From Candidatus Methylomirabilis sp. (GTDB taxonomy: Bacteria; Methylomirabilota; Methylomirabilia; Methylomirabilales; Methylomirabilaceae), in the NCBI GenBank assembly GCA_041498975.1, contig JBGQJI010000062.1, forward strand, positions 1-13,326: 13,326 bases of DNA, written 5' to 3'. Under the pieces are notes generated by a model that was given only the letters and a program-made list of their open reading frames with translations, did not search any database and was not told the origin of the DNA. The position numbers and the translations under genes were made by a program. Of this stretch, positions 1 through 13,326 are shown piece after piece; position 1 is the stretch's first letter, and each line of letters begins with the position of its first letter.

Positions 1-757
1 CGACCTCGAGGACCGCCCCGACCCCCTCCGGCAACTCGCTCTGGACCTGCCGCCTCAGGGACGGGCAAAAGGCGGTGTTGGTTGAGGCATTAAGAAATTT
101 GTAGCGCGAGCCGACCTTGCTCCCGCTTCGGACAATGCCGCCCGGGAACGGCATGATGATCCCCTTCACCTGCCGCATCGCCTCGACCGCACGCTCCGCC
201 GCCTGCAACGCAGCCGGAAGCTCATTTCCTAGTAGGAGGAAATTTCCGCCGGCCACCCCTTTCTGCACACCGAAACGGTCCTCCACGATGAACTCTCCGT
301 CCATGACGGGGATCCGCCAAAAGCGTCTCGGGCGGCCCCCATTCCCGATGATCGCAGGGTCCAGGCGCTTGCTGATCTGAAAGCCGTCCCCGAAAAAGCG
401 AAGCTTGCCACCCACTGAGAGTCGGTCCTCCGCTTCCAGGTTGTTGTAACAGGCCGAGGTGGGGGAGGTCATCACACTCTGACCGATCCGTTTGATGAGC
501 TGCTCCTCAACAGCCTTTTTCGACGGCGCGAACAAGAGGACGCTCACACCAGGACGGTCGTCTGGGGTCTCTTCCGGCTCAGGACGCTCGATGCCGACCT
601 CACAGCCACAGCCGATGACCGACGTGCCGAAGCCGGCCATGCTTCTGGCCGCCTCCAACGCCCACTCCTTGCTGATGGCAGTGATCAGCACGCGGCTGGC
701 GTACATGGTGAACGCTTCGGCATACGTCTCATCAATCGGAACGCCGTTGATTTCCAT
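1..757 (-). CDS. fhcD: Formylmethanofuran:H4MPT formyltransferase (Ftr / FhcD), 3' end outside the window
   Basis: Not in the ORF track because it has no stop in the window; translated by hand from ATG 757, with GGAG 6 nt upstream: MEINGVPIDETYAEAFTMYASRVLITA...GFGTSVIGCGCEVGIE...ETPDDRPGVSVL...RFFGDGFQISK...WRIPVMDGEF...GVAGGNFLLLG...PFPGGIVRSGSKVGSRYKFLNASTN. These are hallmark Ftr motifs, and it follows fhcA as in fhcBADC. Confidence 0.96.
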   Translation of the reverse strand, partial: MEINGVPIDETYAEAFTMYASRVLITAISKEWALEAARSMAGFGTSVIGCGCEVGIERPEPEETPDDRPGVSVLLFAPSKKAVEEQLIKRIGQSVMTSPTSACYNNLEAEDRLSVGGKLRFFGDGFQISKRLDPAIIGNGGRPRRFWRIPVMDGEFIVEDRFGVQKGVAGGNFLLLGNELPAALQAAERAVEAMRQVKGIIMPFPGGIVRSGSKVGSRYKFLNASTNTAFCPSLRRQVQSELPEGVGAVLEV

Positions 758-773
758 GTGAGCTCCGTCAAAC

Positions 774-818
774 TCCCCCTCACCCCCGCCCAGAGGGGAG
801 AAGGAGGGGAGAGGGGGG
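774..818. repeat. Short imperfect palindrome of the CCCCTCACCCC...GGGGAGAGGGG REP-like type
   Basis: TCCCCCTCACCCC (774-786) is near-complementary to GGGGAGAGGGGGG ending at 818. It resembles a widespread intergenic repeat class; copy number cannot be assessed from one window. Confidence 0.5.
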
Positions 819-864
819 CAGGCGAGCGGCTATCCAAAGCGAACGAATCAGGTGTTGTTACATT

Positions 865-957
865 GTCATTGCGAGCGACCAAAGGGAGCGCGGCAATCTC
901 GCCTACCTCATCTGCAGTCCTGCGAGATTGCTTCGTCGCTTCGCTTCTCGCAATGAC
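865..957. repeat. Palindromic REP/MITE-like element (GTCATTGCGAG...CTCGCAATGAC type)
   Basis: Perfect 11-bp terminal inverted repeat (865-875 / 947-957) and nested perfect 10-bp inverted repeat GCAATCTCGC (893-902) / GCGAGATTGC (922-931), lying between fhcA and fhcD. Confidence 0.8.
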
Positions 958-982
958 GCTTTCATTAATGCGTTTGTAACAG

Positions 983-2632
983 TTAGCGAGCGGCTCCTGC
1001 GGGGATCGCCTCGCGGTTGGGGATGTCCTGGATGTCGATCGCGAAGTTCTCGTACTCGATCGTGTAGAAGTTCTCGAACTCGGCCTTGAATTCGGGCTCC
1101 ATCTCGCCCACGTCTGGCGGGACGACGAACAGGGTCTTCCCTAGCCGACTGTCAACGAGCTCGCCTTCCCGCAGGACGATTTCCCCGTCCTTAAGAACAT
1201 ACACAGGGTGCTCGAACATCCGCTCCCGGTCGCTATCCTTGGGATAGATGGTGATGTCGGCATCCGCTCCAACGCCTAAATGCCCCTTGCGCTCGAGGCC
1301 CAAGGCCCTGGCCGGGCCAGCCCGGGTGATGATGGCGATCTCGGAAAGCGTGTACTCGCGATCGAGGTTCGGGAGGGTGGTGTCCGACAGCACCCGCTTG
1401 TGCACACGCTTCATCATCTCGGCGCGGAATTCCTTATCCATGAGCAGCTTGATGATCCAGGGGTAGAAGATGAATGGGCCGCCGTTGGGATGATCGGTTG
1501 ACAGGAACACCCGCCACGGGTCACGGATCAGCAGGAAGAGCTCGAGCCCGATGGCCCACTGGATAGCATTCACATAGTGTTTCTCCCGATAGGTATACGG
1601 GACGATGCCGCACCCCGTCTCTACTTCTACGTCCGCGTTATACCATTTGTTCTTGCTCAGCTTATATAGCCTGTACTGCCAGGGCCCGTCCGCCGTGATG
1701 GTGGTGGCGTCTCCGAACACGACCTGGCCGATATCCGTCGTGACGTGCGGATGGGCGTTGATATATTCGGCCACCTCTGCCGCCTTGGAGCAGAACCCGC
1801 CCCAGTTCTCGCCGCCGTAGCTATGGAACTGGAGATGCGCCATGTGAAGTCTGGAGCCTTCGAGGGTCCGCATCGTCTCAAGCGTGGTCAGGTAGTTGTT
1901 GGGAATGCCCAGGCGGTTGGCGTGCAGGTGGATCGGATGGGGCAGCCCAAGGCTTTCGTTGACCCAGGCCAGGGCCTTCAGGATCTGGCGCGGCGTGACA
2001 TCGAAGTAGTAGACCTTGTCATCCAGCCCTTCCACGTCCTTGCCATATTTCCATTGCTCGACCCCGCCCGGATTGACCAGCTTGATGCCGTAACCCTTGA
2101 GTGACCGGAGGAGCCAGGCGACGTATCGCTTGACCTTCTCCAGCTCGCCCGCCTTGAGGTATTTCAAAACGATCTCGTTGTTCCCCATGAGGATATACAG
2201 CCCCTTGTCCACGATCGGGATGTCCATTAACTCTTCATGGGTGTGGCGGACACCGATGGGAGCATTGGCTGCCTCCATCACCGTGGTGTAGCCCATCCTG
2301 GTGTAGAGATAGCCGGTTGCAAAGGTGGACGGGACCGTAAAGCCGACGCCGGACCTGAAGCCTGGTTTCTTCGCAAACACCGCATGCCTATGGTCTTCCG
2401 GCCTGAAGCCGCGGGCCGCGTTGACGGCAGGGCTGCCAATGTGAGTATGGATATCAACCCCGCCCGGCATGACCACCAGGTTCGTCGCGTCAATCACCTC
2501 GGCGGGCGACTTGCATGAGTCTACGATCTTGCCGTCCTCAATACAGATCTCTTTGACGGCGCCATTGATGCCGTTCGCGGGATCATAGACTTCGCCGCCT
2601 ACGATTTTGAGGGAATGTCCTATCACACTCAA
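983..2632 (-). CDS. fhcA: Formylmethanofuran dehydrogenase / formyltransferase-hydrolase complex subunit A (binuclear amidohydrolase)
   Basis: 549 aa with DIHTH, GYTTVMEA, GIKLVNPGG (carboxylated Lys position), HLHAN, HMAHLQFHSYG, ETGCGIVP, QWAIGLEL and STDHPNGGPF. The TTG start overlaps the TGA stop of subunit B (TTGA); GTG at 2626 is an alternative start. Confidence 0.96.
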   Translation of the reverse strand: MSVIGHSLKIVGGEVYDPANGINGAVKEICIEDGKIVDSCKSPAEVIDATNLVVMPGGVDIHTHIGSPAVNAARGFRPEDHRHAVFAKKPGFRSGVGFTVPSTFATGYLYTRMGYTTVMEAANAPIGVRHTHEELMDIPIVDKGLYILMGNNEIVLKYLKAGELEKVKRYVAWLLRSLKGYGIKLVNPGGVEQWKYGKDVEGLDDKVYYFDVTPRQILKALAWVNESLGLPHPIHLHANRLGIPNNYLTTLETMRTLEGSRLHMAHLQFHSYGGENWGGFCSKAAEVAEYINAHPHVTTDIGQVVFGDATTITADGPWQYRLYKLSKNKWYNADVEVETGCGIVPYTYREKHYVNAIQWAIGLELFLLIRDPWRVFLSTDHPNGGPFIFYPWIIKLLMDKEFRAEMMKRVHKRVLSDTTLPNLDREYTLSEIAIITRAGPARALGLERKGHLGVGADADITIYPKDSDRERMFEHPVYVLKDGEIVLREGELVDSRLGKTLFVVPPDVGEMEPEFKAEFENFYTIEYENFAIDIQDIPNREAIPAGAAR

Positions 2633-3975
2633 CCCCTGGCTTTGCCGGCTGGCACGCGACCGCCGTTCCCGGCGCTTTTTATGGCCACGACCTTCGCGAT
2701 GATCCGCTCCAGGACCTCGCGGTCCGACGGGTAGGGCGAGTCAACCACCTTCTTCATGACAAGGGGGATGTGGTCCATCCTGTACGCCATCCCCCCGGCG
2801 GCGATGCCGGCCTGAGCCGTCGGGATCACCACCGTGGCAACCTTGGTCGTCTCGCTCTCCTTGGGATCGATAGCAATCATCGGAATCGACTGCAGATGCT
2901 CGGCCATCTTGGCCGGAAAGTTCCCGATGGCGTCGGCTGCTAGGATCATCGCAGCATCCACCTCTCCGTGGGCCAACAGATCGGCCACGGAGTACTCACC
3001 CGGGTTGAAACGAGGATAGCCGCGGCTCATGTTCACCGCAAACGGATAACCAGTTTGCCACGTCAGCACCTGGGCCATTCCCACCACGTTGCCATGACCC
3101 CTCATCGGCGCAGCCAGGAACTTGGTGAACCGATTGAGATCCTGGGTCAGCATCAGGAGCGCAACAACGTTCAGATACTTGCCCCGGCTCATGGTCAGAC
3201 CCATCCCCCAATAGAGGATCCCGAATTTGCTGGTCTTCATCTTCTCCAGGAGGGTCTTCCACTCGTCGATCGCCACTCCGCCCACCTCGGCTTGATCCAG
3301 CTCGTGGCCCTTGAGCATGGCCCTGAGGGCAGAGAACACCTCGTAGTCGGAATTCGGCTTGATCTGGATGAAGGCGTCGGCCATCCGTGTCGTCGGTGTG
3401 GGCCTGACGTCCACGTTGATGATCATCCGGTCCTTCTTTCCCTTTGGGGTGAACAGCCCCTTGGCCGTCACCGAGTAGCGGCTGGGATGCCTGGGATGAG
3501 CTTCCGCAGGGTTGCACCCCCAGAAGATGATCAGATCGGCGCGGTTCTTCACCTCTCCCACAGTGCAACTGGAGATGCCGACCGTCTGGACCGCCTGCAG
3601 GCTCGGGGCGTGGCAGACCGACGAGGTGTGATCGATGTTCGCCCCGATCAGATCGGCCAGCTCGATCGATTTGCGCTGCGCGTTCAGCTCGGTCGAGTCG
3701 AGCCCATATATCAGAGGGTACTTGGCTTTTGCCAATATCTCCGCTGCCGCGTCGATGCACTCATCTATGGTCGCCGGCTTCCCCTTGATCCTCGGTGTGG
3801 CCCAACCCTCCAAGTGATGCATGAACGTGTCCTTGCCAAGGACACAAGCGTTCTTGACATCCTTGATCTTGCCGTCCACCACATGGACTTCCAGGTCATC
3901 GCAGAGGACGCCACAGAACGGGCAGGTCACCCCTTCGACGACTCGTAGCTCTTTCACGCCAACGCTCTCAGCCAT
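2629..3975 (-). CDS. fwdB: Formylmethanofuran dehydrogenase subunit B (Mo/W-bis-PGD catalytic subunit, FwdB/FmdB; FhcB homologue)
   Basis: 448 aa from ATG 3975, which overlaps the fwdD stop; the longer ORF to 4074 lies inside fwdD. Motifs: CPFCGVLCDD..NAC, DHTSSVCHAP, GEVKNRADLIIFWGCNPAEAHPRH, PMRGHGNVVG, TWQTGYPFAV, YRMDHIP. Confidence 0.95.
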   Translation of the reverse strand: MAESVGVKELRVVEGVTCPFCGVLCDDLEVHVVDGKIKDVKNACVLGKDTFMHHLEGWATPRIKGKPATIDECIDAAAEILAKAKYPLIYGLDSTELNAQRKSIELADLIGANIDHTSSVCHAPSLQAVQTVGISSCTVGEVKNRADLIIFWGCNPAEAHPRHPSRYSVTAKGLFTPKGKKDRMIINVDVRPTPTTRMADAFIQIKPNSDYEVFSALRAMLKGHELDQAEVGGVAIDEWKTLLEKMKTSKFGILYWGMGLTMSRGKYLNVVALLMLTQDLNRFTKFLAAPMRGHGNVVGMAQVLTWQTGYPFAVNMSRGYPRFNPGEYSVADLLAHGEVDAAMILAADAIGNFPAKMAEHLQSIPMIAIDPKESETTKVATVVIPTAQAGIAAGGMAYRMDHIPLVMKKVVDSPYPSDREVLERIIAKVVAIKSAGNGGRVPAGKARG

Positions 3976-4306
3976 AGCGCTCAACTTCCACCTCCATCCC
4001 TTTCGAATCCGGCATCCCGGTCGCCTGGGTATCCGGGCCGACGAGTGCGTTGATGAATCCCCCGTAGGCGGCAAAGACCAGGCCCTGGGGGATATCTCCC
4101 TTCTTCAATTTGAGCACTGTCGAGCCGTATTGCGTTCTGAGCCGAACCTGATCCCCGTCATGAAGCTGCAAGGCTTCGATGTCCTTCGGATTCATCTGCA
4201 GGGTCGAGGTCTCCTCGAGGAATTCCTTGGCCTCTTTCCCGAGATGGACGGACCTTCCCTGCCTCGTCGTTCGGCCGGTGATCAATGTGAACCGTCTTTC
4301 AAGCAC
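3968..4306 (-). CDS. fwdD: Formylmethanofuran dehydrogenase subunit D (molybdopterin dinucleotide-binding domain)
   Basis: LITGRTTRQG, MNPKDIEALQLHDGDQVRLRT, GDIPQGLVF, INALV and TGMPDSKG match FwdD. Start placed at GTG 4306 because AGGAG lies 10 nt upstream; about 112 aa. Confidence 0.9.
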   Translation of the reverse strand: MLERRFTLITGRTTRQGRSVHLGKEAKEFLEETSTLQMNPKDIEALQLHDGDQVRLRTQYGSTVLKLKKGDIPQGLVFAAYGGFINALVGPDTQATGMPDSKGMEVEVERYG

Positions 4307-4342
4307 CTGGGGCTCACTCCTATCCACGAACAGAATTCTGGC

Positions 4343-4367
4343 ACAAACAAATCGGCCCAATAGGCCG
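4343..4367 (-). terminator. Weak intrinsic terminator or attenuator-like hairpin upstream of fwdD
   Basis: The minus strand reads CGGCC-TATTG-GGCCG followed by ATTTGTTTGT: a short stem with an interrupted U tract. Confidence 0.3.
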
Positions 4368-4458
4368 GTCCGGATTCAGATGCCTCGCAGCCAGGCCGAC
4401 CGAATCGGCGGCTTCCTTGAGCCTCAGTGCCGCGCGTTCGCAGACTCGGTTCCGGACA

Positions 4459-5190
4459 TCAGATCCCTTTCCCGTAGACGGGAATGACCTGGCCGGTGAT
4501 CCCATCGGACGCCTCGGAAGCCAGGAAGGCAGCGACGTTGGCCACCGCGTCCAGGCTGACCCACTTCTTGACCAGATCTTCGGGCGAAGGTTTCATCATC
4601 TCGACGTTCGACTTGGTCTCGACCAGCCCAGGCGCGATGGCATTGACATGAATATTGAACTTCTTCAGCTCCTGGGCAAGGGTCTTCGTCAGGGCCACGA
4701 CGCCGGCCTTCGCGCAGTTGTACGCCGCCATCTGGGCCATCGGTGTCAACGCGCCCACTGAGGCGAAGTTGATGATCTTTCCAGACTTCGCCCTGGTCAT
4801 GTGGGGGATAACCGCCTTGGAACAGAGAAAAGTGGTCGTCAGGTTGTTATGAAGCTCGTCCGTCCAATCTTTGATAGAGAGCTCCACCGCCGGACCGTAT
4901 TTGGTCAACCCCCCGGCCAGGTTGATGAGCACATCAATCTTTCCATACTCGGCCAACGCGCGCTCAGGCAGCCTCGCCACCTCCGCCTCCGACGTGCCGT
5001 CCACGCCAACCCCGATCGCCCGGCCACCTGCGGCTCTTATCGTTTCAGCAACTCGCTGGGTGTTCGCCTCAGTCCTGGCGCTCACGACGAGATTCGCGCC
5101 CTCCCGAGCGAAAGCCCTGGCCAGGAATTCCCCCACCTGGCCCTCGCGGCTCGCGCCGGTCACGATGACGACTTTCCCCTGAATCCCCAT
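4459..5190 (-). CDS. Short-chain dehydrogenase/reductase (SDR family NAD(P)-dependent oxidoreductase)
   Basis: 243 aa; VTGASREGQVG Gly-rich loop, NLAGG, catalytic Ser (FAS), YNCAK, VNAIAPG, ITGQVIPVYG. AAGGA lies 7 nt upstream of the ATG. Confidence 0.93.
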   Translation of the reverse strand: MGIQGKVVIVTGASREGQVGEFLARAFAREGANLVVSARTEANTQRVAETIRAAGGRAIGVGVDGTSEAEVARLPERALAEYGKIDVLINLAGGLTKYGPAVELSIKDWTDELHNNLTTTFLCSKAVIPHMTRAKSGKIINFASVGALTPMAQMAAYNCAKAGVVALTKTLAQELKKFNIHVNAIAPGLVETKSNVEMMKPSPEDLVKKWVSLDAVANVAAFLASEASDGITGQVIPVYGKGI

Positions 5191-5265
5191 CCCAGGTCCT
5201 TTTCTCAGGCCAGTGCCGGTTCAACCTCGTTGTTCCACCTGTGGTGTTCCCACGGCGCCAGCCGC

Positions 5266-6150
5266 TTACGCGGAAAGGCGCCTCCTCGCGATCTCCAGGG
5301 CCGAATTCTCATCGAGCACCACGAACTTGTCGGAGGTCCGGATCGTCTCGAGCATCTCGATCTCGACGTCATACTTCAACACGCCTATGGCGAGAGCTCC
5401 GATCCCCCTGATGCCCGGGGCGATCTCCTTCATGTCATCGTCCACCTTGAGGGAATGGATGCCGGTAGGAGGCACGGCATTCACATCCGCCACGTAGGTG
5501 CCGGGCCGAAGCGTTTTCAGGACTGCCTCGGAAATCATCTCGATCCCCGCCTTGCCGGTGGTCAGGATCAAATTCACGTCACGCAGGTGCGAGATTTTAT
5601 CTTCGTCCGTCGCCATCTGGACGCCCCTGACAACCCCGCCCGTGCGCTCTGAAAGCTGCTGCCCCAATTTTTGCACTTCGGCCGGCCGGCGGGAACCGAT
5701 GATCACTTCACTGCCCTGCTTCGCGCACAGCGTAGCCGCGACCCTCCCGACCGGTCCGGTCCCTCCCGGGATCGCCACCTTCTTTCCCTTGAGCCCTCCC
5801 AACGCCTTGTCCACTTTAGCGACAAGGGATACGGCAGTGGTGTAGGCCCCTTTTGGATCGACCATCATCGAGCACTGGAATGGCGGGAACATGTTCTTGA
5901 CGGCCGTCTGTCGAATCCGTTCAGCAAGATCCTCGTCGTTGCCGCCGATGAGGATCGCCGTGTACTTGGCCCCCTTCGGGCCTCTGGAGAAAATAATGTC
6001 CTGGACCAGGAGCGCCGCCGACTCTTCGGTCACACGCCCGTAAGGAATCACGGCATGGAAGCCGGCGTCATAGGCCATGTTGACATCAAACGGACTGGGA
6101 TGCTCTTCATTGGTCAAAAAATAGAGCAGATGTTTTCGTTCCGTTGCCAT
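5266..6150 (-). CDS. mtdB: NAD(P)-dependent methylene-H4MPT dehydrogenase, MtdB-like
   Basis: 294 aa; SPFDVNMAYDAG, VQDIIFSRGP, DPKGAYTTA, GGTGPVG, DVNAVPPTGI, GIGALAIGVLKY. The N-terminal motifs resemble MtdB more than MtdA. GAGGT RBS present. The subfamily call is by recall. Confidence 0.9.
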   Translation of the reverse strand: MATERKHLLYFLTNEEHPSPFDVNMAYDAGFHAVIPYGRVTEESAALLVQDIIFSRGPKGAKYTAILIGGNDEDLAERIRQTAVKNMFPPFQCSMMVDPKGAYTTAVSLVAKVDKALGGLKGKKVAIPGGTGPVGRVAATLCAKQGSEVIIGSRRPAEVQKLGQQLSERTGGVVRGVQMATDEDKISHLRDVNLILTTGKAGIEMISEAVLKTLRPGTYVADVNAVPPTGIHSLKVDDDMKEIAPGIRGIGALAIGVLKYDVEIEMLETIRTSDKFVVLDENSALEIARRRLSA

Positions 6151-6313
6151 AGGACCTCACTGAGGCAATCAACCCGATGCTGGCGGTTGACGATACACTG
6201 TGAACCGTGAACGGCTCACCTTCGGCCCATCCCTCTCCACGCCAGGAGAGCCTGCGACAGACTCAACCCAGCGCGGGCAGGGACGAGGAGAATGCTTGTG
6301 AAGGGCTCGCACG

Positions 6314-6433
6314 GGATGAGCTGAGAAGATCAAAGGAGCTGATGGTCGAGAGAGCGTTCAGCCCGCTCACGGGCCGTTCGCGGTCTCCTCGGACCCGACC
6401 ACCAGCCCCTTCGATGTCTTCGAAGCTCTATCC
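6314..6433 (-). other. Long intergenic RNA hairpin immediately downstream of fae
   Basis: 20-nt arms 6329-6348 / 6396-6415 give 17 Watson-Crick pairs plus 3 G-U pairs on the minus strand. Further pairing extends to about 6314 and 6433, with an apical GCCCG/CGGGC stem at 6361-6374. Confidence 0.7.
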
Positions 6434-6443
6434 GCTGATCGGA

Positions 6444-6938
6444 CTATGCGAATGGATGCTTGGCTTTGTCCTTCTGCGCCAGGATCTCATCCATGGACGG
6501 CCGCTCAGACACCGCTCTCTGGATCGACTCTTTGGTCGCCCGGTAGTTGAAGTCGTAGATCTTCTTATTGTCCGTGGCCTCCCAGTGGATGAACACGCCG
6601 ACAACCACCACCAGGTCTTCAGCGTCCTTCTTTGCGATGACCCCTTCGGAGACGCTGTCAACGACTGCCTTCGCTACAGCCGCCTGGGCGGGACCGAACA
6701 TCTGAACCGCTTGTGTCGCCCCCTTGATGGTCACCTTGTTGAACATCACTGTCGAAGGCTTTGCCGGGACATTCGGGGCCAGCACCGCCAATAGGCCATT
6801 GTGGCCCGCGGTCTGATCGGCGAGGCGACTTGCGAATGCCGCGCCGACTGGACCGTTCTTCGGGCCGATCATCAGGTCGATATGCGCCACCTCATTGCCA
6901 TCACCCACCAACGACTCGCCGACCATGATCTCGCGCAT
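6444..6938 (-). CDS. fae: Formaldehyde-activating enzyme (H4MPT hydro-lyase)
   Basis: 164 aa from ATG 6938 with GGAGG 7 nt upstream. Motifs VGESLVGDGNEVAHIDLMIGP, FNKVTIKG, QMFGPAQAAVA, GVFIHW and terminal HPF are canonical Fae. Confidence 0.97.
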   Translation of the reverse strand: MREIMVGESLVGDGNEVAHIDLMIGPKNGPVGAAFASRLADQTAGHNGLLAVLAPNVPAKPSTVMFNKVTIKGATQAVQMFGPAQAAVAKAVVDSVSEGVIAKKDAEDLVVVVGVFIHWEATDNKKIYDFNYRATKESIQRAVSERPSMDEILAQKDKAKHPFA

Positions 6939-7020
6939 CGGGGATCCTCCCTTCCTCGTTACCGGTTTAGGTTGCCGCCCAGGAAAATTGCTACCGATGT
7001 CCACCCACAAGCACCCTAAT

Positions 7021-7049
7021 TAACTAGTCTAAATGCGCAATCGTGTCAA
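7021..7049 (-). promoter_or_regulatory. Putative sigma70 promoter of the fae cluster
   Basis: Perfect TTGACA (7049-7044), 17-nt spacer, then an imperfect -10 (TAGTTA) in an AT-rich patch about 80 nt upstream of the fae ATG. Confidence 0.45.
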
Positions 7050-7132
7050 CCTTTTTCCCTCCTGAATAGAGGCATTTTGCTATGAATTCAAGTTATGGGT
7101 AGCCCTCCGAGAGGCGGTGTTGTACCCACTGA

Positions 7133-7528
7133 TCACTGCTTCACGTAGTTGCGGGTCATCTCGACCTCCGTGGCCTTCTTTCCAACCTTGCTCACGATGT
7201 TGACGTTGATCTGATCCTGAGGGGCCTTCTTGAACAGTATGAGGGTGTTCATGAGTGTTTCGGAGCTGAGTTGAGATATCTCCACGTTCCTACCGGTCTT
7301 CTCCTTGTAGTACTTCACCACCTCCCCATAGGGCGCGTTGGCCTTGAAGGTGACCTGAATCCAGTTGGTCCCTTCTCCCTTCCCCGAGTTGCGAACGATG
7401 CTGGAAGGGATCGCCTTGGGGTGAATCGGGAGACCGATGTCATCCAAGGCGAAGACGTGCGAAGTCGGAACTGCCGCGATCGCCATCGCAAGGGCGATCC
7501 TTGCAAGGATGCCGCGAGTGCATCGCAT
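7133..7528 (-). CDS. Small exported hypothetical protein (131 aa)
   Basis: ATG 7528 with GAGGAG 6 nt upstream. Sec-type signal MRCTRGILARIALAMAIAAVPTSHVFA, then a mature part starting LDDIGLPIHPKA with a VVKYYKEK amphipathic segment. Function not recognised. Confidence 0.8.
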   Translation of the reverse strand: MRCTRGILARIALAMAIAAVPTSHVFALDDIGLPIHPKAIPSSIVRNSGKGEGTNWIQVTFKANAPYGEVVKYYKEKTGRNVEISQLSSETLMNTLILFKKAPQDQINVNIVSKVGKKATEVEMTRNYVKQ

Positions 7529-7583
7529 CGAGCACTCCTCATCATCATGATGGCTATGAGTAAAGGGCTGAATCAAGCGACTC

Positions 7584-7612
7584 AGCATACTGCCTCTCCC
7601 TTGAGAAGTCAA
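7584..7612 (-). promoter_or_regulatory. Putative sigma70 promoter for the small exported protein
   Basis: TTGACT-17 nt-TATGCT on the minus strand, 55 nt upstream of ATG 7528. Confidence 0.65.
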
Positions 7613-7790
7613 CCGTTTTGGACGAGCTCTGGCGGCCTCAAGTTCCACGGCCAGCACCGAGTTCCCGTGTGGGAGCCCACGGCAAGTCCTTCGCTGAGCC
7701 CGACGCGCCTGAGCCCGCCCGCAGCAGCCGAAGCCCCCGTGGGTCGAGGGAAACCGAGGTCAACCTCCGGATTGGCATACCCGGGTCGCA

Positions 7791-10700
7791 TCAGCCTGCT
7801 GAAGAGCCCTCCCCACCGGACAGATTCCCCAGGCCGAACCGGCGTACCAGGGTGGGAACCACCACCAGGTTCAATGAGGTTGAGGTAAAAAGGCCGCCCA
7901 AGATCACCCATGCAAGTGGCCGCTGTAGCTCTTTCCCAGCCGGGCTTCCGAAGAGAAGCGGCACGAGGCCCACGGCGGCCACTGAAGCGGTCATCACGAT
8001 CGGATTCACCCGGTCCATCGATCCCTGTATCACGGCTTCCTGCAGCGTTTTTCCTTCGTCACGGATCAGCCTCTGGTAATGGGTGAGCAGGATAATGCCG
8101 TTGCGCGCCGCGATTCCGAACAGGGCGATGAACCCGATGAGGGAGGAGACGTTTAGGACCCGCCCCGTCAGGAAGGCAGCGCCCACCCCACCGATCAGGG
8201 CGAGTGGGAGGTTGGCGAGCACGAGGCACGCCGCCCTCACAGACCCGAACGCCTGGACCAGCAGGAGGAGGATCCCGGCGAAGGCTAACAACCCCAACCA
8301 GAGCAGGGTCCGTTGGCTGCGGAGCTGGCTCTCATGCTGCCCGCCGTACTCGATGAAGTAGCCTGCCGGCAAGACCACCTCCCCAGCGATCTGTCTCTTG
8401 ACCTTCCCGATGACGTCAGCCAGGTCCCGGCCGACCACGTTGAACTGCACGACGATCCTCCGCGAAAGATTCTCGCGATTCACGACGTACGGCCGCTCCT
8501 CGATCGCCACCTTCGCCACCATGCCCAGAGGAATCTTCAGCCCCCCAGGGGTATCCACCATCGCGTTCCTGATGGCGGCCACGTTGCGCGTCGAGTCGTT
8601 ATCGAAGCGGACGAGAAGGCCGAAACTTTTTTGCCCCTCCAGGATCTGCGACACCACTGTGCCGTTGAAGGCAGCCTCGATGAACCGACCGACCTCCTGT
8701 GCCTTCAGCCCGTACCGCGCGGCAGCCGAACGGTCGATCCTGATCACAAGCTGGGGCACGGCGACCTGGGGTTCCAGATTCAGGTCCACCACCCCATCGA
8801 TCCCCTCCAGGATTCTCAGGACATGGCGTCCCTTTTCCCGAAGCACGTCGAGATCCGGCCCGAAGATCTTGACCGCCACCTGCGCATGCACCCCGGTAAG
8901 AACCTCGTCGATCCTCTCGCCAATGAAGGCGCTCACCGCAAACGTAAGGCCGGGGATCTCCCGCAGGTCCTGGCGGATGGCCCGCAGCAGCCCGGCGGGT
9001 GACCCTGCCCCGAATCTCAACACGACATCGAATTCGCTGGCGTTCACCGGGAAGGCATCCTCATCCAGCTCAGACCTCCCTGCCCACTGGCCTACCGAGA
9101 CCACCTCCGGATGCTTCAACAGGCTCTCCTGGACCTGTCGCCCCAGGCGCATCGACTCGGCCAGGGAAGTCCCGGGCGGCGCAACCGCACGAATCACCAG
9201 GTTCCCCTCGTGGAAGGCAGGGAGGAATTCCCGGCGGAGAAAGGGGATCAGCGCCAGGGCCGCCGCGAGTAACACCGCAGAGACCCCGACTACCCAGCCC
9301 GGATGGCCCAGAGCCCACTCCAGGATCACCGCATACCATCCCTTCATCCTGGCCACCACCAGGCTCTCTCCGTCCCCTCCCGGCCATTTCTTGGCCCGGG
9401 TAAGAAACAGAGAACAGAGGACAGGTGTTTGCGTGAGCGCCACCAGCAACGACGCGGAGATGGCGACGATATACGCCACTCCTAGGGGCATGAAGATCTT
9501 GCCCTCCGGCCCCGACAGGAAGAAGACGGGGAGAAAGAAGAGCGCGACAATGGCCGTCGCATAGACAACCGATCCCCTGATCTCTCTCGAAGCATGGTAG
9601 ACGACGGACAGGGTCGGCTCAGGCGTCGGTTTCCGTCGATTCTCGCGGAGGCGCCTGAAGATATTCTCGACATCGATGATGGCATCATCCACCACCTCCC
9701 CCAGGGCGATGGAAAGCCCCCCTAAGGTCATCACGTTGACCCCGATCTTCAAGGCGCGGAGCATGATCAGGGTGAGGAAGAATGACATCGGCATGGCCAG
9801 AAAGCTGATGCCTGCCGGTCTGAGACTGAAGAAGAAGAGAAACAGGACTGCCAGGACGATGAGGCCGCCCTCAAGGAGGGCTTCGCCCAGGTTCTGCACG
9901 GCCGCCTCGATGAAGTTGGCCTGCCGGAAGACGGTGCGGTGCAGCCGGACGCCCGGAGGAAGCGTCCGCTCAAGCTCCCTCAGGGCTTCCTCCACCCCGT
10001 AGGTCGTTGTGAGGGTGTCGGCTCCAAAGAGCTTGAAGACGGCCCCGATGACCGCCGGAGTTCCGTTCAGGCTGCCATCGCCGCGTTTGACTTCCGAACC
10101 CACTCGAACTTCCGCGAGCTGTGCCAGGGTGACCGGGACCCCCTTGCGCGAGGCCACGACCGTGTTTCGAAGGTCCTCCAGCGAGCCGATGCGGCCCCGA
10201 CCGGTGACCACATACTCCTGATCCGAAGAGATCAAGAACCCGCCCGGGACATTGCTGTTCGATTGCTTCGCGGCCTCGACGACTTGCTGAAGGCTGATCC
10301 GATGATCTTGCAGCCTCTGCGGATTCACCAGGACCTGATACTGCTTGACCCCGCCTCCGATGGAAACGACGGAGGCCACCCCGGGGAGGGCCAGCAACCG
10401 TCGCTTGATTTCCCACTCTGCAAAGGTTCGGAGTGCAAGGGCTGCCTGTGGATCATCCCCCGCGCTCGAGGTGAGGCCGTACTTCAGCAGCTTGCCAAGG
10501 GAAGAGATGACAGGGAGCATCACGGGCTCCTTCACCCCCTCGGGAAATTGCTCCCGAGCCTGGCGAAGCCGCTCGTTTAAGAGCTGGCGGGTCAAGTAGA
10601 TATCGGTTCCCCATTCAAATACCACAGTGATGGCCGCGAGTCCGGGACTGGAAGAGGAACGCACGACGGCGATATTCGGGGTTCCGTTAAGGGCAGCCTC

Positions 10701-10907
10701 GATCGGGATGGTCACCTGAGCCTCAACCTCTTCGGCTGAAAAGCCCGGAACCTCGACCCGGATCTCCGCCTGCGGCGGCGCGAACTCAGGAAAGACATCG
10801 AGCGTGAGGTTCCTCGCGCTGATCGCGCCGGCGATCGCGACGAGCAAGGACCCGACCAGGACGAGCCGCCGATTGCGGAGCGACCACCCGATCAATGCGT
10901 CAAACAT
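7791..10907 (-). CDS. Heavy-metal efflux RND permease, CzcA/CusA family
   Basis: 1038 aa; LDVFPEFAPPQ, SAEEVEAQVTIPIE, TM4 ALGEVVDDAIIDVEN, FLPAFHEG, FGIAARNGII, RVNPIVMTA, GKELQRPLA. Metal specificity is not determinable by eye. Confidence 0.95.
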   Translation of the reverse strand: MFDALIGWSLRNRRLVLVGSLLVAIAGAISARNLTLDVFPEFAPPQAEIRVEVPGFSAEEVEAQVTIPIEAALNGTPNIAVVRSSSSPGLAAITVVFEWGTDIYLTRQLLNERLRQAREQFPEGVKEPVMLPVISSLGKLLKYGLTSSAGDDPQAALALRTFAEWEIKRRLLALPGVASVVSIGGGVKQYQVLVNPQRLQDHRISLQQVVEAAKQSNSNVPGGFLISSDQEYVVTGRGRIGSLEDLRNTVVASRKGVPVTLAQLAEVRVGSEVKRGDGSLNGTPAVIGAVFKLFGADTLTTTYGVEEALRELERTLPPGVRLHRTVFRQANFIEAAVQNLGEALLEGGLIVLAVLFLFFFSLRPAGISFLAMPMSFFLTLIMLRALKIGVNVMTLGGLSIALGEVVDDAIIDVENIFRRLRENRRKPTPEPTLSVVYHASREIRGSVVYATAIVALFFLPVFFLSGPEGKIFMPLGVAYIVAISASLLVALTQTPVLCSLFLTRAKKWPGGDGESLVVARMKGWYAVILEWALGHPGWVVGVSAVLLAAALALIPFLRREFLPAFHEGNLVIRAVAPPGTSLAESMRLGRQVQESLLKHPEVVSVGQWAGRSELDEDAFPVNASEFDVVLRFGAGSPAGLLRAIRQDLREIPGLTFAVSAFIGERIDEVLTGVHAQVAVKIFGPDLDVLREKGRHVLRILEGIDGVVDLNLEPQVAVPQLVIRIDRSAAARYGLKAQEVGRFIEAAFNGTVVSQILEGQKSFGLLVRFDNDSTRNVAAIRNAMVDTPGGLKIPLGMVAKVAIEERPYVVNRENLSRRIVVQFNVVGRDLADVIGKVKRQIAGEVVLPAGYFIEYGGQHESQLRSQRTLLWLGLLAFAGILLLLVQAFGSVRAACLVLANLPLALIGGVGAAFLTGRVLNVSSLIGFIALFGIAARNGIILLTHYQRLIRDEGKTLQEAVIQGSMDRVNPIVMTASVAAVGLVPLLFGSPAGKELQRPLAWVILGGLFTSTSLNLVVVPTLVRRFGLGNLSGGEGSSAG

Positions 10908-10939
10908 CGTAATCCCGTCGGTCCCCCTGCTCGCGGGCG

Positions 10940-12208
10940 CTAATCGGCATCGGTCTCCGCCTCTCCCCGTGGAGGCCCTGCAGTCCCCCCTTCGATCGCT
11001 CTTCGATAGAGAACCTCGAGCTGTCGCTTCCCGGTGGTCACCACCCGTTCGCCCCTCGTGAGACCCTCCTTCACCTCGACAAACCGGTCATCGCGATGCC
11101 CAAGAGAGACGGCGCGGCGCTCGTACCCGTCCGGGGTAGCCACGAACACCGCCTCCTCTTCGCCCTCGGCGAGGACGGCAGCCAGGGGGATCCCCAGTAC
11201 CTTAGATCGCCGTCTGATCACCACCGTCATCTGAGCGAACATGTTCGGCCGAAGCTGAGCGTCGGGAGGGTTATCGACCTCCGCCAGAAACTTGATCGTC
11301 CGCTTTTCCGGATCAACCGCCGCGCCGATGCTCGTGATGCGCCCTTCGAACGTGCGACCGGGAAATGCGGCAACCGTGAGCCGCACGAGCAGTCCACGTC
11401 GAAGCCGCGCGGCTTGAGATTCGAAGGCTTCGCCCTCTGCGAGGACGCGGTGCAGATCGGCCAGTCGAAAGAGGATCTGCTCCGGCTTCACCGCTTCTCC
11501 AAGGGCGACATTCCGCTCGACGATCACCCCGCCGATGGGGGCCCGGAGCATGAGCAAGGGCGACGCCCGAGAGGAAGTTTTCATCTGCTCGATCTCATTC
11601 TCGGCAATCCCGATAAGGCGCAGACGGGCCTCCAATCCCTCCACCTCGCGGGCAGCCTGCCTCTGTTCCATCTCTTTCCGCAACAGCTCTTTGAACGCGA
11701 TGGCCTTCCGGGCAGATAGCTCTCTGGCAAGGTCCCGATCGGTGTTGGCCAAGCCAAGCCTATTCCAAGCCTGGATCAGCACGGTCTGGAGATTTCCCAG
11801 TTCAAGGCTCCGGATCTCAACAAGCCTCTGGCCCTTCTCGACCGGGTCACCAGCGAGCCCCCAGGCGCCGAGGACCTTTCCCTCGATTCTGGCGCTGATC
11901 GCCGCCGTCAGATCGGGGTGGCTCCCGATCATCCCGTTCACCGCCATGATCTCTTCGATGGCGCGGAACTCAGCGGATTCCTCCTGAAGCCCGATCCTTT
12001 CCCGAATCGACAGCGGCACCTTGATCAGTCGAGTCTTCTCTACACCAAGGGCGGTCAAGACGGAGGCTTTGCCCGCAGGCTGGTCCCGTTCCCGATCCGA
12101 GACGGGGGTAGCCTTTGGGCTTCGAAGTTTCAGTGTGGCCACCCCTATCCCGACCGTGAGGAGGCCGAGGGTGAGGAGCGCGAAGAGGGCATTCCGCCAT
12201 CTCTTCAT
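10940..12208 (-). CDS. RND periplasmic adaptor (membrane fusion protein), CzcB/CusB-like
   Basis: N-terminal membrane anchor (ALFALLTLGLLTVGIGVATL), ISARIEGKV...GDPVEKGQ, RAPIGGVIVERNVALGE, LRPNMF, GLTRGERVV. Start is ATG 12208 (AAGGGG upstream) or 12229. Confidence 0.93.
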   Translation of the reverse strand: MKRWRNALFALLTLGLLTVGIGVATLKLRSPKATPVSDRERDQPAGKASVLTALGVEKTRLIKVPLSIRERIGLQEESAEFRAIEEIMAVNGMIGSHPDLTAAISARIEGKVLGAWGLAGDPVEKGQRLVEIRSLELGNLQTVLIQAWNRLGLANTDRDLARELSARKAIAFKELLRKEMEQRQAAREVEGLEARLRLIGIAENEIEQMKTSSRASPLLMLRAPIGGVIVERNVALGEAVKPEQILFRLADLHRVLAEGEAFESQAARLRRGLLVRLTVAAFPGRTFEGRITSIGAAVDPEKRTIKFLAEVDNPPDAQLRPNMFAQMTVVIRRRSKVLGIPLAAVLAEGEEEAVFVATPDGYERRAVSLGHRDDRFVEVKEGLTRGERVVTTGKRQLEVLYRRAIEGGTAGPPRGEAETDAD

Positions 12209-12295
12209 CAAGTCCCCTTTTTCATGCACCGAGACGGAAATCCCGGCACGAGGCGTTCAATTCACTCTCTAAGGCAACGTTGTGGACTAACCAAT

Positions 12296-12646
12296 CTAAA
12301 TGTGTGCGGGAAACGCAACGGAGTGCGGCGACGTCACGTGGGGGTCGTCGGATCGTGGAAGGCTGAAGGAATTGCGAGCAATCGGTAGCCTGCAAATCGG
12401 CTTCGAAAGGGAGTCGATCCCGTGCAATTCAGCAACAGCGCAGGGAACCCCCGGAATGATAACCGCCGGGTGAGGCAGCGAATTGACGGCGTCTTCCCCG
12501 GCCTGCACCCTGACTTGGACAACACCCCCATCGAAGGTGTCGGACATGTCGAAGTCAAACGCATCAAGGGGGAGGTACACGAGGAGGAAAGCCAAAAAGG
12601 CGAGACACACTCGCCTGCGACTCTCACCGGCATTCTCATTTTCCAT
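12296..12646 (-). CDS. Small membrane-anchored hypothetical protein leading the RND operon (116 aa)
   Basis: ATG 12646 with GGGAGG 8 nt upstream, downstream of a predicted promoter. RRR is followed by the hydrophobic VCLAFLAFLLVYLPL, an acidic DAFDFDMSDTFD segment and a Pro/Ser/His-rich tail. Confidence 0.6.
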   Translation of the reverse strand: MENENAGESRRRVCLAFLAFLLVYLPLDAFDFDMSDTFDGGVVQVRVQAGEDAVNSLPHPAVIIPGVPCAVAELHGIDSLSKPICRLPIARNSFSLPRSDDPHVTSPHSVAFPAHI

Positions 12647-12702
12647 GGCCGATCCTCCCACGGCTTCAGGCCCCCACAGCCACTCGAGGCTCCTGGGCCG
12701 CA

Positions 12703-12732
12703 ACGATACCAACTTTCGACCTGCGCCGTCAA
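12703..12732 (-). promoter_or_regulatory. Putative sigma70 promoter of the leader-MFP-RND operon
   Basis: TTGACG-18 nt-TATCGT with an extended -10 TG (TGgTATCGT), 56 nt upstream of ATG 12646. Confidence 0.55.
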
Positions 12733-12878
12733 CCGCCTTGTCTGTTGCCACCACGCGATGGATTATTCTCACTCGATCCCGTTTTTCCGCTGTCGCGGGT
12801 ATGATCTCCACATCGACAGAATCAGATGGAGATTATCCCCGGACAGAATCGCTCTACCAATCACAAGAACGTTTTTGC

Positions 12879-12908
12879 TTGACAGACCTGGGGCAACTCG
12901 CCTATAAG
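12879..12908 (+). promoter_or_regulatory. Putative sigma70 promoter, divergent, for the gene at 13159
   Basis: TTGACA (12879-12884), 18 nt, TATAAG (12903-12908). Confidence 0.6.
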
Positions 12909-13158
12909 AAAACCGAGTTTCTCGTACTGTCATATTCTCAACAGTGCGAATCGACAGGCGGACGGCGCGACGAGTGGCTCTCGGGGATCGAAGGAGGTGA
13001 GGCCGGAGCAGACGCGGCGGCGCCCCAGGCGGGACCCGGCGCGACAGGGGGGAGCGCCGGGGCACAGCCCCCGCCCGACCACCCGGGCGCCACAAGACGA
13101 CCACGCGGAGCGACGACGGGCAGATCCTGAACTCCATCCAACCCAAGGAGGCGGTGCA

Positions 13159-13326
13159 ATGCGACGATGGGCAAGTCTTCCTCTCACACTCCTGTTCGCG
13201 TGCGGCCTGGCCCTGCCAGCCTGGGCGAACAGCGAGCTGCACCCCGGGGCGCGGCTCTTCTACCCCCTGTGGGACGTCTCGACCCCCAACCGGCTGACCT
13301 TCATCATCGTCACCCGCGAGGCGCTC
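13159..13326 (+). CDS. Exported hypothetical protein, N-terminal fragment (continues beyond the window)
   Basis: Not in the ORF track. AAGGAGG (13145-13151) precedes ATG 13159: MRRWASLPLTLLFACGLALPAWA-NSELHPGARLFYPLWDVSTPNRLTFIIVTREAL. Clear signal peptide with an AWA cleavage site; the frame is open to the window end. Confidence 0.8.
   Translation, partial: MRRWASLPLTLLFACGLALPAWANSELHPGARLFYPLWDVSTPNRLTFIIVTREAL

Follow-up and report, generated by a model that had tools for sequence, protein, structure and literature searches.

A formylmethanofuran dehydrogenase module with an apparently intact tungsten/molybdenum site in an Ftr-containing operon of Candidatus Methylomirabilis

Does a bacterial operon of the formyltransferase/hydrolase complex (Fhc) type always release formate, or may it encode a formylmethanofuran dehydrogenase (Fwd) that oxidizes the formyl group through to CO2? 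This question is raised by 13,326 nucleotides from Candidatus Methylomirabilis sp. (assembly GCA_041498975.1, contig JBGQJI010000062.1, positions 1 to 13,326 of the forward strand), here called the window, which is the complete contig C62 of a genome (label G000) of the Methylomirabilota and carries fwdD, fwdB, fwdA and ftr in line. The catalytic subunit FhcB of Methylorubrum extorquens has lost Cys118, His119 and Arg288 as well as the Fe-S domain and subunit D (PMC6926001). We consider it probable that the window encodes an active, Ftr-containing formylmethanofuran dehydrogenase, which would work oxidatively and take the formyl group to CO2 rather than release formate, because every sequence mark of the tungsten/molybdenum (W/Mo) site is kept.

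The predicted catalytic site of FwdB and FwdD

The three genes of the module and the codons of the predicted active site are:

3968..4306, minus strand: fwdD, pterin-capping (molybdopterin dinucleotide-binding) subunit, 112 amino acids (PF01568, 54 bits at a cut-off of 27, E 1.5e-14)
2629..3975, minus strand: fwdB, predicted catalytic subunit with a Mo/W-bis-pyranopterin guanine dinucleotide (bis-PGD), 448 amino acids (TIGR03129, 542 bits at a cut-off of 328)
983..2632, minus strand: fwdA/fhcA, amidohydrolase, 549 amino acids (TIGR03121, 762 bits at a cut-off of 393)
3922-3924, minus strand: fwdB Cys18, Fe-S cysteine
3913-3915, minus strand: fwdB Cys21, Fe-S cysteine
3901-3903, minus strand: fwdB Cys25, Fe-S cysteine
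3844-3846, minus strand: fwdB Cys44, Fe-S cysteine
3613-3615, minus strand: fwdB Cys121 (TGC), predicted metal ligand
3610-3612, minus strand: fwdB His122, predicted catalytic His
3100-3102, minus strand: fwdB Arg292, Arg-Gly-His motif
3094-3096, minus strand: fwdB His294, Arg-Gly-His motif

The motifs that a sequence-only reading had described in FwdB, namely the Fe-S cysteines, the Cys-His pair with its TGC codon and RGHGN, are all present when the codons are read from the window, and in an alignment with the archaeal M. wolfeii FwdB (5T5I_B, E 7e-128) the key residues coincide with its Cys-His and Arg-Gly-His motifs. The match to M. extorquens FhcB (6S6Y_B) reaches E 1e-18 only, and FhcB is without the N-terminal part. 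As had been claimed, a separate fwdD overlaps the start of fwdB, namely by 8 nt; its product matches FwdD chains in the PDB (E 3e-20 to 3e-11) and scores 87 bits against NF042908, under the cut-off of 175. The further claim that stop and start codons overlap throughout D-B-A holds for D/B, whereas for B/A it depends on the start codon: TTG at 2632 gives an overlap of 4 nt and the in-frame GTG at 2626 a gap of 2 nt. Since the residues and the subunit that were lost in FhcB are all present here, B and D look catalytically intact, as the same reading had proposed.

The distribution of these residues indicates which of them are informative. All eight are kept in 113 of the 120 best homologs, while five homologs are partial and two changed. 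Among 150 representatives of the whole FwdB family, obtained by clustering at 50%, the Fe-S cysteines are combined with Cys-His in 23, the cysteines occur without an aligned Cys-His in 101 (87 changed, 14 gapped), and the remaining 26 are partial or otherwise composed; the pair is kept in none of seven proteobacterial FhcB proteins. The Fe-S cysteines were therefore rejected as a sign of activity, because most representatives without Cys-His retain them, and the Cys-His pair is taken as diagnostic. The site is easily lost where it has no use, but it is retained in the clade of the window.

The ratio of nonsynonymous to synonymous substitution rates (dN/dS) against the genus-mate G057 is 0.054 for B, 0.14 for D and 0.10 for A, which indicates purifying selection on all three genes. 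In alignments of FwdA, the ligands of the Zn-Zn site, His62, His64, Lys184, His235, His266 and Asp380, are all kept. An AlphaFold model of B, calculated from an 18-sequence alignment, was poor (predicted local distance difference test, pLDDT, 65; predicted template modelling score, pTM, 0.60); a fold search ranked FwdB chains first but with a root mean square deviation of about 11 A, and the model was set aside.

Second copies of fwdB and the supply of metal

A further fwdD-fwdB copy, whose fwdB contains an in-frame TGA, occurs in six genus-mates. In the five checked, this TGA takes the place of the Cys121 codon, and a hairpin follows about 11 nt 3' of it (8 bp in four copies, with one mismatch in the fifth). 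Judged from these features, the TGA likely encodes selenocysteine (Sec), which is established as a catalytic metal ligand (PMC11656701); selA is found in all 20 genomes of the genus. The Sec-type copy nests within the NC10 Cys clade of the B tree (100/99), and a ligand codon that recently diverged into Cys and Sec forms would be hard to reconcile with a dead site. In the three loci read, the Sec-type genes stand alone:

L067:8218-14079 (G053), also L073 and L074: stand-alone Sec-type fwdD-fwdB region, lying among tupA-like and modABC genes

The other neighbours at these loci are modE-like, tupBC-like and moaC genes, with selA nearby; in G053 a NuoF-like gene and FdhA come next, with no A, C or ftr alongside. 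The copy also occurs in G054, G061 and G067, and pmoB is present in all six carrier genomes. Internal stops in the first-copy B of genus-mates were likewise considered as Sec codons and rejected, being the natural C-terminal stop. In family f10 of the same class (L056, L057, L059, L060, L061, L069 and L072), D-B-A-C operons without ftr are found, in which B has TGA at the ligand codon (five genomes checked) and C is of the long Fhc type.

The host has no Sec-type second copy in its assembly, which is 85% complete, so that genes not found there may still exist in the organism. Instead, it carries an orphan second fwdB (contig C1, L001:11201-12589) that keeps the four Fe-S cysteines and has Phe-Tyr in place of Cys-His. 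The orphan has no D, A or C beside it, forms a clade of its own (100/100) and occurs in 6 of 66 genomes of the order (host, G065, G066, G051, G024 and G026), none of them with the Sec copy.

Genes for the Mo/W cofactor were looked for in the host genome, and moaA, moeA, moaC and tupABC-like genes were found, together with tRNA-Sec and a mobA-like gene whose match lies below the cut-off; modA and modB were not found in the host assembly. A lack of cofactor genes, which the sequence-only reading had named as a refuting result, is therefore not what the genome shows. Because tup-like genes are present and modA/modB were not found, tungsten appears slightly favoured over molybdenum, although genes alone do not fix the metal. 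As a side observation, host contig C23 (1085-13473) holds the tungsten-uptake island also seen at the Sec-type loci, with modE-like, tupA-like, tupBC-like, moaC and selA genes, without a D-B insert and without modABC. Four aldehyde:ferredoxin oxidoreductase-like genes on host contigs C37, C240, C36 and C28, about 40% identical to the copy in G053, would also fit tungsten use.

The operon, its relatives and its Fhc-like side

The operon has the order fae-mtd-SDR-fwdD-fwdB-fwdA-ftr on the minus strand and is truncated at the contig end. Besides the module, it comprises:

6444..6938, minus strand: fae, formaldehyde-activating enzyme (PF08714; TIGR03126, 252 bits)
5266..6150, minus strand: mtd, methylene-tetrahydromethanopterin (H4MPT) dehydrogenase (PF09176, E 3e-29)
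4459..5190, minus strand: short-chain dehydrogenase (SDR) in the gap between mtd and fwdD (PF00106)
2..757, minus strand: ftr/fhcD, formyltransferase, 252 amino acids, running off the contig (TIGR03119, 345 bits at a cut-off of 293)
865..957, no strand: palindromic dispersed repeat in the fwdA/ftr gap, inverted repeats
775..817: second, smaller hairpin in the fwdA/ftr gap, inverted repeats

The larger repeat has dozens of matches in the host genome, and 172 copies of its 11-nt arm are spread over both strands. Contigs from all four public DNA runs that carry the stretch, one of which may be the source sample itself, show no insertion or deletion relative to the window and unchanged catalytic codons; single contigs span the D-B and B-A junctions, and contigs of the runs extend beyond the window start. 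No RNA run is listed among the public sequencing runs carrying the stretch, and a scan for promoters and terminators gave counts at chance level (1 vs 1.9; 6 vs 3.8). Positions 7133-12229 hold unrelated neighbours, namely a 131-amino-acid gene without a family, whose 55% identical counterpart in G057 likewise precedes fae, and a pump of the CusA/CzcA resistance-nodulation-division type with its adaptor.

Sixteen related loci in named genomes encode a B that is 74-92% identical; 11 of these genomes are labelled Methylomirabilota, Methylomirabilis, Methylomirabilales or NC10 and five otherwise. The NC10 link made in the sequence-only reading is right, with regard to both these loci and the published NC10 system. 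Across the phylum, 34 of 251 genomes contain a match to B, including 17 of 19 genus-mates, and fwdD is found in the same 17, which makes 18 of 20 genus genomes when the host is counted. The order D-B-A-ftr is conserved wherever the related loci reach; the SDR insertion between mtd and fwdD recurs in two of the sixteen (L009 and L011). Directly after ftr, fwdC follows in all five named loci that extend that far, and then come mch and a RimK-family ligase; in the nearest relative an xoxF cluster lies upstream of the operon. The fwdB at L009:8001-9170 is shortened in frame by about 61 codons, either through a true deletion or as an assembly artefact. No pmoB was found in the host or its six nearest genus-mates (G051, G056, G057, G064, G065 and G066; 80-94% complete), and it is present in 10 other genomes of the genus; possibly, these seven form a non-methanotrophic subclade.

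The C subunit of the relatives appears to be of the Fhc type, with an extension predicted to dock Ftr. The C of the nearest relative aligns with M. extorquens FhcC through to the C-terminus, and the C-terminal segment comprises 45-46 amino acids in all six Methylomirabilota and 45-63 in all seven proteobacteria, compared to 27-33 in 50 of 51 metagenome loci, where the exception is the sole locus with ftr in line. A predicted model of two Ftr and one C from G057, with contact agreement of 91% or more and a partner pLDDT of 91 or more, scored 0.84 against 0.37 for the best control, a mark that was reached by 51 of 78 solved but only 2 of 108 mismatched pairs. The predicted interface lies on C residues 218-238 in the long C-terminal segment, and Ftr of the window matches 29 of the 32 predicted interface positions. 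Because a similar complex, 6S6Y, has already been solved, the model indicates likeness and not binding. In M. extorquens Fhc, a basic patch anchors polyglutamylated methylofuran; of the Lys or Arg residues specific to proteobacteria, those at Ftr 130, 218 and 220, at A 195 and at C 164, 202, 233 and 253 are kept, and others are not.

The trees (LG+G4) are unrooted and were calculated from subsets of rows: the quick B tree from 42 of 270 searched proteins plus 19 locus proteins, with one short proteobacterial B left out, the careful B tree from 40 rows, the A tree with 28 of 54 metagenome A and the C tree with 24 of 51 metagenome C; the label archaeal-type on metagenome rows is itself inferred. 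The window's A joins proteobacterial FhcA to the exclusion of the 28 metagenome rows (100/99), and the relatives' C groups with proteobacterial Fhc plus the single locus with ftr in line (100/100). A 98/98 branch puts the B of the window on the same side as the archaeal rows, opposite proteobacterial rows with long branches, but B lies outside the clade holding three named archaeal rows (100/98), which leaves an archaeal donor for B/D unsupported. Given that B does not fall within the archaeal sequences and that both A and C join proteobacterial Fhc, a retained ancestral bacterial D-B-A-Ftr-C state is likely, over a recent archaeal-bacterial hybrid, as far as unrooted trees can tell; proteobacterial Fhc likely derived from this state via loss of D and the Cys-His site. 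The earlier description of the system as a hybrid thus stands for its features, i.e., Fwd-type B/D, Fhc-type gene order and Fhc-type C in relatives, but not for its origin.

The fate of the formyl group and known systems

In the proposed route, Fae, Mtd and Mch would produce formyl-H4MPT, the mch gene being known from the relatives' loci. The Ftr dimer, docked on an Fhc-type C whose gene would be located just past the contig end, would transfer the formyl group to a methanofuran-type carrier, and the Zn-Zn site of A would hydrolyze the formyl carrier. Formate would then cross an internal cavity and be oxidized at the bis-PGD site, which would lie between B and D, and the two electrons would exit through the [4Fe-4S] cluster of B to an acceptor encoded outside the operon. 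A free ferredoxin seems most plausible for this role, and the FdxA-type, encoded elsewhere in the host genome, would be the simplest candidate; a NuoF-type NAD+ module is the alternative, and no NuoF-type formate dehydrogenase beta subunit was found in the host assembly besides complex I. Matches to Fer4_7 occur in four genomes. Six regions of G053 with ferredoxin motifs were considered as electron partner and rejected, since they belong to the small subunit of an aldehyde:ferredoxin oxidoreductase, an FdxA ferredoxin and subunits of other enzymes, none FwdF-like by eye. The oxidative direction is suggested by fae and mtd upstream of the module and by the xoxF cluster of the nearest relative.

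Several observations weigh against formyl oxidation to CO2 by this complex, and some of them would fit a complex that works like Fhc in vivo, releasing formate for oxidation by separate formate dehydrogenases while B/D are structural or hold a cofactor without a physiological electron outlet. Lys64 of M. wolfeii FwdA is a proposed gate for formate; Lys stands at this position in 48 of 53 A proteins of the archaeal type and in 6 of 7 from proteobacteria, but the window has Ala69 (2426-2428), and four of five other aligned Methylomirabilota A also have Ala. No gene for FwdF/G or another ferredoxin lies in the window or adjoins the operon in the relatives' loci read, the host assembly contains no open reading frame with at least three CxxCxxCxxxC motifs, and many archaeal-type loci carry a polyferredoxin gene. 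The host has separate formate dehydrogenases (FdhA, over the cut-off, on contig C60; an FdhG-like gene on contig C89), so that released formate could be handled, and the NC10 pathway has been drawn with formate as a free intermediate (PMC3282944). The Fhc-type C and gene order point in the same direction. Low dN/dS alone is no proof of catalysis, because the ligand-less orphan B is likewise under purifying selection (0.16), and the cofactor genes are not specific to this complex, as other Mo/W enzymes use them. Neither fwdC, which is also absent from the window, nor mch or xoxF was found in the host assembly, the remaining proteobacteria-specific basic positions are not basic in NC10, and the literature searched, which covered few subscription papers and supplements, yielded no report of biochemical work on a bacterial complex that contains D. 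Nevertheless, an Fhc-like role seems unlikely to us, though it deserves to be taken seriously, because the Cys-His pair, Arg, His and D have been lost in most lineages of the family yet are kept in 113 of the 120 close homologs, and the Cys/Sec pair at the ligand codon would be hard to square with a dead site.

It might also be that B/D form an active formate dehydrogenase that also or mainly uses free formate, for example from XoxF, and is only loosely tied to A, C and Ftr. The missing gate Lys would agree with this, and so would the Sec-type D-B copy, which in G053 has NuoF-like and FdhA genes as neighbours and lacks A, C and ftr beside it. However, D, B and A are tightly coupled in the window, their order is kept in the related loci, and archaeal B/D act on channelled formate (PMC11656701), which makes this explanation very unlikely. 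Least credible is a reductive complex that fixes CO2 to formyl-H4MPT in a methanogen-like manner: the catalytic equipment does equal that of archaeal Fwd, and the C1 source of the host is uncertain, with pmoB not found in its assembly, but CO2 reduction would require donors of about -0.53 V (PMC11656701) and no polyferredoxin was found, fae and the relatives' xoxF indicate oxidation, and NC10 bacteria fix carbon via the Calvin-Benson-Bassham cycle (PMC6094997).

Oxidation of the formyl group to CO2 within the complex is therefore the reading we prefer. A wider and rather doubtful scheme would let the NC10 complex take formyl-H4MPT to CO2 without a docked ferredoxin and with swappable B/D modules, the Cys form in the operon, the Sec form, encoded beside Mo/W-uptake genes, wired to NAD+ through a NuoF-like partner, and in other lineages a ligand-less spare B that would convert the complex to a formate-releasing Fhc. 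If active, the complex would conserve the electrons of formyl oxidation within one enzyme in a widespread group of sediment methylotrophs; it would also represent the state from which formate-releasing Fhc arose. It offers a concrete system in which to study how a dehydrogenase may turn into a scaffold.

Much of the genetic framework is already in print. The retention of fwdD has been described for Archaea, Synergistetes, Firmicutes and NC10 (PMC5020050), 149 bacterial FwdB representatives have been reported (PMC10100899), and both a D-B-A-ftr-C operon whose cysteine is intact and the idea of formyl/formate oxidation in NC10 have been published. The gain here thus concerns the biochemistry, the electron acceptor and the Sec, Cys and ligand-less B paralogs of the relatives; no published description of the NC10 Sec copy was found in the same literature. 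The closest known case is the NC10 five-gene system (Damo_0456-60 in Ca. Methylomirabilis oxyfera; XU15_C0002G0330-34 in CSP1-5), the highest transcribed formyl/formate oxidation system there (PMC6094997, citing Reimann et al. 2015). It has the same D-B-A-ftr-C within fae-mtd...mch; the window holds four of its five genes, with a B that shares 79% identity with that of CSP1-5 (L011). The host differs in that pmoB was not found, in its orphan B in place of a Sec copy, in the SDR insertion and in the repeats.

Among Actinobacteria, fwdDBA-ftr-fwdC with Cys118 and the Fe-S domain has been regarded as possibly active (PMC7325909). Ca. Hakubella thermalkaliphila has this same operon, also without fwdF/G, and the representative of its B cluster (P0109) shares 55% identity with B of the window; it was reported without methanopterin synthesis genes (PMC7325909), whereas the host has fae, mtd and an mptG-like gene. 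Bacterial D-B in Sec and Cys forms is shared with the fmdD-fmdB-fmdA-fmdC operons of planctomycete P2 and a Lake Washington fosmid, which have Sec and, according to that source, no ftr, whereas B of the window has Cys; M. oxyfera was named there as an operon carrier (PMC4807772). Archaeal Fwd/Fmd (M. wolfeii, 5T5I; Ca. Ethanoperedens, 8RJA, oxidative and F420-coupled) shares all ligands at about 47-50% identity in B, a separate D, a Zn-Zn A and Cys/Sec isoforms. There, however, Ftr is stand-alone and C ends in a short beta-hairpin, whereas here ftr is in line, the relatives' C is longer and Fhc-type, no FwdF/G module was found and the gate Lys is Ala. With M. extorquens Fhc (6S6Y), the system shares the order B-A-ftr-C (C from relatives), the predicted Ftr-docking helix-loop-helix of C, some of the basic positions of the carrier-binding type and the grouping of A and C, while in M. 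extorquens the Cys-His pair, Arg and the Fe-S domain are missing from B, D is absent and formate is released (PMC6926001). The complex belongs to the described NC10 system and is neither an archaeal Fwd, with no F/G and ftr in line, nor an Fhc, with B and D intact.

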